From Escherichia coli (GTDB lineage Bacteria > Pseudomonadota > Gammaproteobacteria > Enterobacterales > Enterobacteriaceae), in NCBI RefSeq assembly GCF_003334405.1, contig NZ_QOWM01000001.1: a DNA stretch of 64,000 nucleotides. The stretch is one strand, 5' to 3'. Positions within the stretch are counted from its first letter, which is position 1; each line of letters starts with the position of its first letter. Both the position numbers and the translations under genes were made by a program. Shown piece by piece: positions 54,705 to 57,129 of this stretch. The notes beneath the pieces are model-generated. The model saw nothing but the letters and a program-made list of their open reading frames with translations, made no database searches and was not told the origin of the DNA.

Positions 54705-56099
54705 ATGAAAACATTAACTTGCTTTAAAGCCTATGATATCCGTGGAAAATTAGGTGAAGAATTAAACGAAGATATTGCTTGGCGCATTGGTCGTGCATAT
54801 GGCGAATTTCTTAAACCGAAAACGATTGTTTTAGGCGGCGATGTACGTCTCACCAGCGAAACATTAAAACTGGCGTTGGCTGAAGGTTTGCAGGATGCGG
54901 GGGTTGATGTTCTTGATATCGGTATGTCTGGTACCGAAGAGATTTACTTTGCCACTTTCCATCTTGACGTTGATGGTGGGATTGAAATTACTGCCAGCCA
55001 TAATCCTATTGATTATAACGGTATGAAGCTGGTGCGTGAAGGTGCTCGCCCCATCAGTGGCGATACTGGACTACGTGATATTCAACGACTAGTGGAAGCT
55101 AACAACTTTTCACCGATTAACGAAAGCAGACGTGGCAGTTATAAGCCAATCAATCTACGTAATGCTTATGTTAATCACCTACTTAGCTATATCAACGTTA
55201 AAAATCTTACTCCTCTAAAGCTGGTGATTAACTCTGGTAATGGGGCCGCGGGCCCTGTGGTGGATGCTATTGAAGCCCACTTTAAAGCGCTCGGTGCACC
55301 TGTTGAGTTAATCAAATTGCACAATACACCGGATGGCACCTTCCCTAATGGTATTCCCAATCCTCTGCTGCCGGAGTGCCGTGATGACACCAGCAATGCA
55401 GTAATCAAACATGGCGCGGATATGGGAATTGCCTTTGATGGCGATTTTGACCGCTGTTTCCTGTTCGATGAAAAAGGACAGTTTATAGAGGGTTATTATA
55501 TTGTTGGACTGTTGGCTGAAGCATTCCTCGAGAAAAATCCAGGTGCGAAGATCATCCACGATCCTCGTCTCTATTGGAATACTGTTGATGTGGTTACCGC
55601 CGCAGGCGGCACGCCGATAATGTCGAAAACAGGACATGCATTTATTAAAGAACGCATGCGTAAGGAAGATGCCATCTACGGTGGCGAAATGAGTGCTCAT
55701 CACTATTTCCGTGATTTTGCTTACTGTGACAGCGGGATGATCCCGTGGTTGCTGGTGGCCGAGTTAGTGTGCTTGAAAGGGAAGATGTTGGGGGAGTTGG
55801 TACGTGATCGCATGGCTGCATTTCCGGCGAGTGGTGAGATCAATACTAAATTGGCGCAACCGGCAGAAGCGATTAACCGCGTGGAGCAGCATTTTAGCAG
55901 CGAGGCACTGGCAGTGGATCGCACTGATGGTATTAGCATGACTTTTGCTGATTGGCGCTTTAATTTGCGCACCTCTAATACTGAGCCGGTGGTGCGCCTG
56001 AATGTAGAATCGCGTGGTGATGTTAGAATGATGGAAAGAAACACGAAAATAGTATTTTCATTACTTAATGATAATACTATTATTTGCAATAAGGGATAA
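54705..56099 (+). CDS. manB: Phosphomannomutase (O-antigen copy), divergent C-terminus
   Basis: 464-aa ORF; long stretches near-identical to cpsG at DNA level (e.g. attgcctttgatggcgattttgaccgctgtttcctgtt); the last ~20 codons differ from CpsG. Confidence 0.9.
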
Positions 56100-56109
56100 T
56101 ATAACATAT

Positions 56110-57129
56110 ATGAAACTTTATTATTACAAATCTCCTACTGGTAACTTTGGTGATGATTTAAATGCTTGGCTGTGGGAAGAGTTGCTGCCAGGGTATTTCA
56201 AATATGAAAATGGTATTATTTTTTCAGGAATTGGAACTATTATTTCTGCTGATATGCCAACATCGAGTAAAACTGTAATCTTTGGCAGTGGCGTTGGTTA
56301 TGGTTATCCACCAATGAATTTCGGTGACAATAGATGGGATGTGCGCTTTGTAAGAGGTCCGCTATCCGCAAAAGTCCTTTCGCTGCCTGCTAATAAATAT
56401 ATTACAGATAGTGCAATTCTCGTCTCTAAAATAGAGGGTTTTGAACCGTTGCCTGAGAATGAAAGAAGCGGGATTATTTTTGTTCCCCATCATCATGCAT
56501 TACATACAGGTCAATGGCATGAAGTATGCAAATCAGTAGGTATTGAGTTTATTGATCCTACCCAAGATTCAAAATATGTAATACAAAAAATAAGAAAGTC
56601 GAAACTTGTTCTAGCTGATGCGATGCATGCTGCTATTATTGCAGATTCACTTCGAGTTCCGTGGATACCTCTGGTAACCTCTAATCAAATTAATACATTT
56701 AAGTGGATTGATTGGACTTTATCAGTTAAATTAGAGTACTCCCCATCATATATTGGGCCAAGTTCTATGCGTGAATGTTTGAGGAATAAATTTCTTCATT
56801 TATATGGTGAGTCATTTTATATAAAAAGTTTGAATGCTGATGATTCCATAAATTGCTTTTATAAACAAAGGGATATTTTGTCAAATAAATGGTGGCCTAT
56901 TTATAGTAAAATAATTAGAAGATGTGTATATACAGCCCCCAATCTTTTATTAAAGAAAATTGAACAATTCTCGTCTCCTAGATGGGATGAAAAATATATT
57001 AGTTTAGCTAAGAAAAAAATCTTAGATGCAATGAAGAGAGCGCCAATGTTAAGTTCCGATGATGTTTATCAATCGAATTTAAATAAAATTCTTAATGAGG
57101 TAGAATGCGTAAGAAAAATGTATAAATAA
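56110..57129 (+). CDS. Putative polysaccharide pyruvyl transferase-like protein (tentative)
   Basis: ATG 56110 (MKLYYYKSPTGNFGDDLNAWL); the G-x-x-N-x-G-D pattern resembles the WcaK N-terminus (GNHTCGNRGDSAIL); visibly AT-rich; not membrane-spanning. Confidence 0.4.
   Translation: MKLYYYKSPTGNFGDDLNAWLWEELLPGYFKYENGIIFSGIGTIISADMPTSSKTVIFGSGVGYGYPPMNFGDNRWDVRFVRGPLSAKVLSLPANKYITDSAILVSKIEGFEPLPENERSGIIFVPHHHALHTGQWHEVCKSVGIEFIDPTQDSKYVIQKIRKSKLVLADAMHAAIIADSLRVPWIPLVTSNQINTFKWIDWTLSVKLEYSPSYIGPSSMRECLRNKFLHLYGESFYIKSLNADDSINCFYKQRDILSNKWWPIYSKIIRRCVYTAPNLLLKKIEQFSSPRWDEKYISLAKKKILDAMKRAPMLSSDDVYQSNLNKILNEVECVRKMYK

Follow-up and report, generated by a model that had tools for sequence, protein, structure and literature searches.

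The question raised by this locus is how a phosphomannomutase gene of an O-antigen cluster that follows the colanic acid gene cpsG over most of its length came to end so differently, and which of its two parts is the newcomer. The gene, manB, lies at positions 54705–56099 of the window (the whole 64,000-nucleotide stretch of Escherichia coli DNA analyzed here; all features described below are on the plus strand), and its open reading frame encodes 464 amino acids, the coordinates including the stop codon. Upstream of it is manC (53239–54678), its low-GC partner native to the cluster, and the colanic acid cluster of the same window carries the resident paralogue cpsG (38845–40215), which served as the reference. 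The record for the exact ManB protein contains all four PGM_PMM domains in order (PF02878, PF02879, PF02880, and PF00408), and the protein scored 999.9 bits against the NCBIfam CpsG profile NF011943 (cutoff, 801), with residues 1–455 matching profile positions 1–455 of 456. The motifs TASHNP, DGDFDR, GEMSAHH, and RxSNTEP, which we take to be the phosphoserine, metal, sugar, and phosphate loops, respectively, were all found in the translation (4/4), each on invariant columns of a 46-sequence alignment. By its domains, profile match, and motifs, the manB product is a member of the CpsG/ManB phosphomannomutase family within the alpha-D-phosphohexomutase superfamily. In the assembly collection, 110 blocks list the exact 464-amino-acid protein; the contigs are many and independent and include one complete genome (CP065611), and the protein was also encoded on one metagenome contig.

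When manB was aligned with the window cpsG, two unequal parts were distinguished. The initial annotation had described a protein that follows CpsG and then departs from it, and the alignments bear this out: the body (54705–56023) matched cpsG without an indel at 82.5% nucleotide and 93% amino acid identity, and the proportion of differing nucleotides rose from 17.5% on the left of the breakpoint to 51% on its right. At the protein level, 409 of 440 residues were identical to CpsG on the left of the junction and 6 of 16 on the right. The maximum chi-square value (34.9) placed the breakpoint after base 56023 (56023/56024), and this value was reached in none of 2000 site shuffles and none of 2000 codon shuffles (permutation p ≤ 0.0005). 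The junction interval defined by the alignments and the maximum chi-square (56016–56024) comprises GGTGATGT, the final stretch in which manB and cpsG are identical, and then the first difference on the tail side; the V440 codon occupies 56022–56024. At codon positions 1 and 2, 41% of the tail sites (13/32) differed from cpsG, as against 4.8% in the body, and the GC content dropped from 0.465 in the body to 0.24 in the tail and extension (Fisher p = 1e-4). A recombination junction near base 56023 is well supported by these comparisons, and manB is a mosaic gene with a recombination scar 76 bases before its stop. We also considered a patchwork body of alternating native and cpsG tracts; this found no support, because the changes on the manB lineage were evenly spread (8–14 per 120 nt), with a single region of natural variability as the exception.

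The sequence beyond the junction had been called an unrelated AT-rich tail. Its AT-richness stands, but it is not unrelated, and just its final 8 residues are additional. The first 16 codons (56025–56072; R441–D456; GC 0.25) fit the C-terminal helix pattern of the family, xLMExxTxxxxxLLxx, are equal in length to the CpsG ending up to LLND/LLNE, and retain M443, T447, and L454, which are invariant or near-invariant tail residues in the 46-sequence alignment. The segment was modelled with high pLDDT as a terminal helix (residues 440–455) and aligned with the C-terminus of solved Xanthomonas phosphoglucomutase (PGM) chains. For example, the X. citri enzyme (e.g., 5BMN and 5KL0) has the same four domains and could be aligned over residues 3–454, including the terminal segment; its solved chain stops 2 residues past the aligned LL (465 of 467), whereas ManB runs 10 past its own LL. 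On the strength of the alignment and the model, the tail corresponds to the family's terminal domain 4 helix in diverged form. The remaining 8 codons, NTIICNKG, with the TAA stop at 56097–56099 (extension, 56073–56099), lie past the canonical ManB end, as judged from predicted disorder (pLDDT below 50 at residues 458–464), an earlier stop in E. albertii, and length comparison; all tails examined from 78 species were shorter (14–20 residues) than the 24-residue tail of this ManB. With the canonical stop in another frame, manB reads 8 codons further. A TAA in the +2 frame of manB at 56072–56074 suggests that a 1-nt deletion could have displaced the stop, and these 8 codons, which carry no sign of function, may have arisen in this way. 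The 464-amino-acid length of ManB and the 353-amino-acid call made for the gene that follows it are annotation quirks and indicate no new domain.

The surroundings of the gene bear on the direction of the exchange. Similarity to cpsG begins at the manB ATG, with none 5′ of the start codon, and the cpsG-type DNA forms an island (54705 to approximately 56023) that is flanked on both sides by AT-rich DNA of the cluster type. The GC3 of the manB body (0.43) lies between those of cpsG (0.64; GC 0.55) and manC (0.26; GC 0.374), and the other cluster genes have GC3 values of 0.20–0.27. Although manB is cpsG-like, manC shares only 65% nucleotide identity and about 71–72.5% amino acid identity with cpsB. 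Across 59 species loci, the ManC/CpsB and ManB/CpsG identities were correlated, and the pair in the window (71% and 93%) lay 3.5 sd above the fit (z = +3.5); the corresponding ManB/CpsG excesses in O173 and O176 were 6.9 and 2.7 sd, respectively. The recombination junction proposed for the 3′ end of manB is supported by the steps in identity and GC, by the recurrence of the breakpoint in O157 and O173 described below, and by this mismatch between ManB and ManC. Since the cpsG-type DNA is an island and manC resembles cpsB so little, the likeliest course is that the manB native to the cluster had its interior overwritten with cpsG-type DNA, and the tail would be a leftover of the original gene. 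We therefore favor the polarity opposite to that initially proposed, in which a foreign O-antigen segment had been spliced onto a cpsG-like manB.

That earlier polarity, according to which a cpsG-like manB, captured as a copy of the colanic acid gene, was in place beforehand and, as the cluster was assembled, acquired a foreign AT-rich block (the manB 3′ end and the genes for the pyruvyl transferase, Wzx, and GT2) through a crossover within the 3′ end of manB, is unlikely but has several observations in its favor. The low GC of the tail and extension resembles that of the genes downstream of manB (0.28–0.34), and the pyruvyl transferase gene has relatives in quite different polysaccharide clusters, suggesting modular movement. 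The breakpoint data fit both polarities equally well, and in either case the tail would be the remnant of another manB. In contrast, the upstream genes, including the non-cpsB-like manC, are equally AT-rich, and the likeness to cpsG also ends at the manB start codon. A second, 5′ junction is needed in any case, so a single conversion tract is simpler than two splices. The body of the cluster's low-GC manB was thus probably replaced by cpsG-type DNA, with the original 3′ end surviving. The cluster would first have carried a low-GC manB of its own beside the low-GC manC. A colanic-acid-type gene, presumably from the cpsG lineage found in Escherichia and closely related bacteria, would then have recombined homologously with it or converted it, replacing manB from the start codon to approximately 56023, with the 3′ crossover falling in the last block of manB conserved enough for pairing. 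The original gene would survive as the last 16 codons, that is, as the terminal helix of domain 4.

When the manB 3′ ends were compared across serogroups, as had been suggested initially, the same breakpoint was found in the O157-type and O173 genes, the bodies of which share 96% nucleotide identity with cpsG, whereas their last 46 nt share only 46–59%. In E. coli proteins, the last conserved block precedes at least six different tails. This comparison shows that the crossover lands repeatedly in the last conserved block of manB, leaving a serogroup-specific C-terminal helix. A tail shared among serogroups would have suggested an ancestral manB C-terminus, but outside this cluster, which both E. 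coli and E. albertii carry, the searches brought up no copy of the tail described here. A megablast search of 5,426 complete E. coli genomes with positions 55900–56700 gave no match, and a more sensitive search of the same genomes yielded pyruvyl transferase genes alone, all distant and homologous from 56110 onward, and no such tail in another serogroup. The final 48 amino acids of ManB, used in a protein word search, retrieved short CpsG fragments only; these helped to catalogue the other tails but included no relative of the present one. In a peptide-pattern scan of 100,044 species genomes, the best match was 79% over residues 1–39, and no match to the tail pattern was found among the matches listed; a degenerate DNA scan of metagenomes for the tail peptide gave one match, again this E. 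coli cluster. Tails that are short and diverged would be missed in such searches. A native low-GC manB with a matching tail was found neither among the matches listed for the 100,044 species genomes nor in the metagenome collection, so that the case for the tail as what is left of the original gene is one of composition and context. In the searched genomes, no donor was found for either the tail or the body. The body shared 82.5–84.3% nucleotide identity with any cpsG/manB of the 5,426 complete E. coli genomes and 74–78% with those of other genera. No NCBIfam O-type model matched the wzx or wzy of this cluster, and searches of paper texts and supplements yielded no serogroup; O156, whose O antigen contains pyruvate, was discarded on account of the gmd, fcl, and gmm genes in its cluster.

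In E. albertii, where four assemblies contain a copy of the cluster, manB is the same mosaic. The E. coli and E. albertii genes were equally alike in the body and in the tail (97.6% and 97.8%, respectively), indicating that both parts share one history. The tail differed at 2 of 48 nt, against a background of 2.7%, and is not fast-evolving. In the extension, 3 of 37 nt differed (p = 0.08 against the same background), which is suggestive only, and a TGC-to-TGA change at 56087 removes the last 4 extension residues in E. albertii. Judged from these sequences, the capture of cpsG-type DNA by manB is old, because the mosaic is common to E. albertii and because the body has diverged by 17.5% from present E. 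coli cpsG. Considered by itself, a body only 82.5% identical to its own cpsG indicates that either the replacement is old or the donor is unsampled.

The alternative that no recombination occurred, and that the tail diverged in place as constraint on the helix relaxed, mutation favored AT, and the reading frame shifted or the stop was lost, is decidedly improbable, although some observations favor it. Among the 78 species, no segment of the family varies more than the terminal helix; the manB lineage has undergone 112 GC-to-AT changes, compared with 14 in the opposite direction; and a single-base deletion would account for the displaced stop. Given the variability of the helix and the strong GC-to-AT drift, part of the divergence of the tail could have arisen in place. 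However, the change from body to tail is a step rather than a gradient, codon positions 1 and 2 differ far more often in the tail than in the body, and orthologues that are equally or more diverged in nucleotide sequence keep 10–15 of the 16 tail residues, compared with 6 of 16 in this ManB. In O157 and O173, where the same breakpoint occurs, the bodies have diverged too little from cpsG for the tails to have changed in place. The slow evolution of the tail between E. coli and E. albertii also argues against divergence in place. An assembly or sequencing artefact, such as a chimeric contig or a frameshift error, can be virtually dismissed, since the sequence is identical in many independent E. 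coli assemblies, a complete genome, and a metagenome contig, and a 97.6% identical copy occurs in the four E. albertii assemblies.

The manB stop had been placed about 10 nt before the next start codon, and the spacer is exactly 10 nt (56100–56109), followed by an ATG at 56110. The gene beginning there (56110–57129; 339 amino acids) was assigned to the polysaccharide pyruvyl transferase family from the source names and a weak PF04230 match, and its DNA homology to other E. coli pyruvyl transferase genes begins exactly at 56110. A Shine–Dalgarno-like AAGGGA, recognized by eye, lies within the last manB codons (56091–56096), ending 13 nt before this ATG, and no terminator was found between manB and the pyruvyl transferase gene. 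The surviving AT-rich end of manB may also hold the ribosome-binding site of a pyruvyl transferase gene that would be co-transcribed with manB. A regulatory role for the tail region was also considered and was dropped: there is no terminator, the sole promoter-like site was no better than chance, and an AU-rich hairpin at 56044–56085 was not significant (z = −1.73; 10 of 200 shuffles folded equally well).

The replacement of manB by a colanic acid gene is an already published phenomenon, and the present gene is one more, older, example. Jensen and Reeves are said to have found, in 2001, that the O-antigen manB genes of Salmonella enterica are colanic-acid-like. The S. enterica genes would be alike in having arisen from the colanic acid manB, or undergone conversion by it, and in lying beside a manC of different history, but they belong to another species and other clusters. 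For O157, a passage in PMC3158064 that cites Samuel et al. 2004 reports that manB was replaced by the colanic acid gene and that later gene conversion has kept its likeness to cpsG (>95%). The O157 manB similarly has a cpsG-type body inside a low-GC O-antigen cluster and a serogroup-specific tail straight after ...VESRGDV (KLMEKKTKALLKLLSE in the O157-type gene); the differences are that its body is 96% identical to cpsG at the nucleotide level, compared with 82.5% here, and that the open reading frame here continues 8 codons beyond the canonical end. The body described here lacks the near-identity (about 93–99%) to the resident colanic acid gene seen in the O157 and Salmonella cases. [quoted passage not shown] These deletions are direct proof that paralogues approximately 15–20 kb apart recombine, but the intervening DNA was lost in those cases, whereas here there is a conversion-like patch and the cluster was kept. 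Automated pipelines name this manB cpsG, and manB is a poor marker of the history of this cluster.

The base composition of the captured body raises a further point. In contrast to the manB lineage, the cpsG lineage shows 27 GC-to-AT and 24 AT-to-GC changes. The O176 manB has the ratio 58:8, and the recently converted O157 and O173 manB genes have no GC-to-AT excess over cpsG. It is doubtful whether, since its capture, the cpsG-type body has been drifting toward the high AT content of the DNA around it. If the drift arose inside Escherichia, and not in some low-GC host that has yet to be sampled, O-antigen clusters would owe some of their low GC to changes made in place and not solely to inheritance from low-GC donors. 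A possible cause would then be that rare, serogroup-specific genes escape the GC maintenance linked to recombination, and a dated series of captured manB genes would provide a clock for AT decay. The AT-biased decay of the captured body may offer a small, testable lead on the AT-richness of O-antigen clusters.

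Over its first 20 kb, the window is 99.4% identical to Escherichia coli chromosomes; next comes the colanic acid (wca) cluster, which includes cpsB (37307–38743) and cpsG (38845–40215) and has galF (47362–48267) on its 3′ side. A low-GC O-antigen cluster (48613–59602) lies between galF and gnd (59697–61103) and comprises, in order, a wzy-like gene of the EpsG family, three GT4 glycosyltransferase genes, manC, manB, a pyruvyl transferase family gene, a 505-aa presumed flippase gene (wzx) with no Pfam or NCBIfam match, and a GT2 glycosyltransferase gene. No NCBIfam model matched the wzy-like or putative wzx product at E ≤ 0.001. 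The start of manC is ambiguous, being placed at TTG 53215 by the mechanical ORF call (487 aa) and giving 479 aa (ATG 53239) or 439 aa in public records. A search of 5,426 complete RefSeq E. coli genomes returned no copy of the cluster, although many draft assemblies contain it. A protein identical to this ManB has already been deposited publicly (e.g., UniProt A0A0A8J6V9), and the assembly collection indexes it in 110 blocks.

The manB gene (54705–56099, 464 aa) aligned with cpsG of the same window without gaps across 456 codons. Up to V440 (56022–56024), the two agreed at 409 of 440 residues and at 82.5% of bases, whereas across the next 16 codons (56025–56072, the tail) they shared 6 of 16 residues and approximately half of the bases. 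A maximum chi-square scan of manB against cpsG placed the single best breakpoint after base 56023 (chi-square, 34.9), with 17.5% differences to its left and 51% to its right; this value was attained by none of 2,000 site shuffles and none of 2,000 codon shuffles. At codon positions 1 and 2, 13 of 32 tail sites differed from cpsG, compared with 4.8% in the body of the gene. The GC content fell from 0.465 to 0.24 across the junction (Fisher p = 1e−4), and the low value beyond it fits the neighboring cluster genes (GC3, 0.20–0.27), unlike cpsG (GC3, 0.64). Therefore, the divergent manB 3′ end reported in the initial annotation is present where it was placed, well beyond chance, and the identity step and GC drop show that the junction is real; the stop codon (56097–56099), described there as about 10 nt from the next start, was measured at 10 nt ahead of the ATG at 56110. 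The junction is of an already well-known kind. A separate patch of lower identity to cpsG (55065–55190; 63–78% per 60 nt) accounts for 15 of the 31 residues at which the bodies of the two proteins differ (residues 126–161). Other family members vary here as well, so the patch probably reflects natural variability of a surface segment, not a second mosaic tract.

The tail had also been described as unrelated to the normal ending, but it proved to be homologous. Comparison of 78 ManB/CpsG genes across species showed that the stretch past ...RLNVESxxDx fits the pattern xLMExxTxxxxxLLxx and has a length of 14–20 residues, and in a 46-sequence alignment, T447 was invariant and L442, M443, and L454 were nearly so; the window ManB retains T447, M443, and L454, its sole departure being the conservative L442M. 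Residues 1–455 matched the NCBIfam CpsG profile end to end, HMMER aligned residues 3–454 with Xanthomonas PGM chains to within 2–3 residues of their C-termini, and an AlphaFold2 model (mean pLDDT, 88) gave a confident helix at residues 440–455 and pLDDT values below 50 at residues 458–464. Together, these results indicate that the tail consists of the usual terminal helix in diverged form and, beyond it, eight additional residues. This extension (NTIICNKG, 56073–56096) is predicted to be disordered and shows no sign of function. Because an out-of-frame TAA lies at 56072–56074, and restoring one base in codon 456 would put the stop at the canonical position, loss of a single base could plausibly have given rise to the extension. 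The canonical manB end lies within an AU-rich inverted repeat, GAAAATAGTATT ... AATACTATTATTTGC (56044–56085); the predicted hairpin is weak and not significant (z, −1.73; 10 of 200 shuffles fold equally well).

The pyruvyl transferase gene downstream has two starts in public records, giving 339 aa from ATG 56110 or 353 aa from ATG 56068 inside manB, with a 32-nt overlap. The 339-aa form is favored: 56110 is precisely where DNA homology with other pyruvyl transferase genes sets in, and all four differences from the Escherichia albertii copies of the cluster within 56068–56109 would be non-synonymous if the longer frame were read. The final manB codons contain AAGGGA (56091–56096), which could plausibly serve this gene as a ribosome-binding site. 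No terminator separates the two genes, and promoter-like sites did not exceed chance frequency. Co-transcription of manB and the downstream gene is most likely, and they may be near enough for translational coupling.

The other boundary of the cpsG-type DNA helps to tell which part arrived later. The match to cpsG starts at the manB start codon, and the DNA just upstream is unrelated to that upstream of cpsG; manC (GC3, 0.26) shares only 65% nucleotide and 72.5% amino acid identity with cpsB. Across 59 species loci in which both genes were scorable, ManC/CpsB identity predicted ManB/CpsG identity with a residual sd of 4.4 points, and the O-antigen pair of the window (ManC 71%, ManB 93%) lay 3.5 sd above this line, with the O173 pair (57%, 99%) 6.9 sd and the O176 pair 2.7 sd above it. 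The start-codon boundary, the divergence of manC, and the excess identity of ManB thus mark 54705 to approximately 56023 as a cpsG-type island in AT-rich cluster-type DNA, and one conversion-like replacement of the manB body would account for both boundaries. The initial annotation had proposed the opposite polarity, in which a foreign downstream block was spliced onto a resident cpsG-like gene; however, that reading requires an additional junction at the 5′ end, and with AT-rich cluster DNA on both sides of the island, the polarity is probably reversed. If the body was replaced, the tail may be a remnant of the cluster's first manB, as its composition, its context, and the analogy with O157 and O173 suggest.

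Similar structures recur in other serogroups. The body of the O173 manB is 95.5% identical in nucleotide sequence to the window cpsG and its last 46 nt are only 46% identical, and the corresponding values for the O157-type manB are 96.1% and only 59%; the O173 tail QLMEKKTNDILSILK and the O157-type tail KLMEKKTKALLKLLSE both begin where the window manB tail does. Among E. coli protein fragments, at least six distinct tails follow one shared block, which lies within the invariant RxSNTEPxxRLNxE region. Crossovers likely resolve at this block because it would be the last stretch similar enough in diverged manB genes to recombine. That manB and cpsG recombine with each other is on record: seven manB-cpsG rearrangements, and deletion of the manB-cpsG region in 10 of 12 populations, are reported from the long-term evolution experiment (PMC4173774), and such recombination removed the O-antigen cluster of the O14 type strain (PMC7685785). 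For O157, the colanic acid gene is reported to have taken the place of manB, with homogenization by gene conversion afterwards (PMC3158064). In the O157:H7 strain 7.1_Anguil (NZ_CP076232.1, locus positions 7001–10300), cpsG has a tail of the O157 manB type, and after it come an ISAs1-family transposase pseudogene, perB, and gnd; the locus lacks wcaJ through wcaM, galF, and the greater part of the O157 cluster, a layout consistent with deletion by cpsG/manB recombination. The same tail was sought as an ancestral ending in other serogroups, as the initial annotation had suggested, and none was found: outside the cluster, it had no relatives in complete E. coli genomes, among protein fragments, or in the best 80 loci from 100,044 species genomes, and a degenerate-codon scan of the metagenome collection returned a single match, the same E. 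coli cluster.

Four E. albertii assemblies (loci L013–L016) have the same gene order, and their manB matches that of the window at 97.6% identity over the body and 97.8% over the tail; since both parts are equally close, the mosaic arose before the two species came to share the cluster. The body differs by 29 synonymous and 3 non-synonymous codon changes, indicating strong purifying selection. The tail differs at 2 of 48 nt, and the extension plus spacer at 3 of 37 nt against a 2.7% background, which is suggestive only (p = 0.08). A TGC-to-TGA change at the equivalent of 56087 (about 9975–9981 in L013–L016, corresponding to 56085–56087) ends the E. albertii ManB at 460 aa (...NDNTII), compared with 464 in E. 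coli, and leaves a 22-nt gap to the next gene; thus, at least the last four ManB residues are dispensable. Upstream of galF (about 560–2340), these loci carry just a 50–66-aa WcaM fragment; the flank holds no colanic acid cluster, and no resident cpsG seems to be at hand there for conversion. In L013 (PTLP01000001.1, 3713–13383), the calls for wzy (220 aa) and glycosyltransferases (233 and 222 aa) are short, and wzx and the GT2 gene are merged as one 781-aa call; the calls stem either from true pseudogenes or from faults in the assembly.

In complete genomes, the closest E. coli cpsG or manB is at most 84.3% identical to the body, and other genera reach 74–78%, placing the body, though old, in the Escherichia-side cpsG lineage. 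When substitutions were polarized with Citrobacter cpsG as the outgroup, the manB lineage had 139 changes (112 GC>AT and 14 AT>GC, evenly spread along the gene) and the cpsG lineage 57 (27 GC>AT and 24 AT>GC). The O176 manB (locus L001, 11818–13188) showed the same bias (58:8), and the recently converted O157 and O173 manB genes had no GC>AT excess over cpsG. The bias reflects either a long stay of the cluster in a lower-GC host or in-place AT drift within O-antigen clusters. Once captured, cpsG-type genes seem to approach the AT-rich composition of the O-antigen cluster over time, and this AT-biased decay is the sole lead here with some wider reach.
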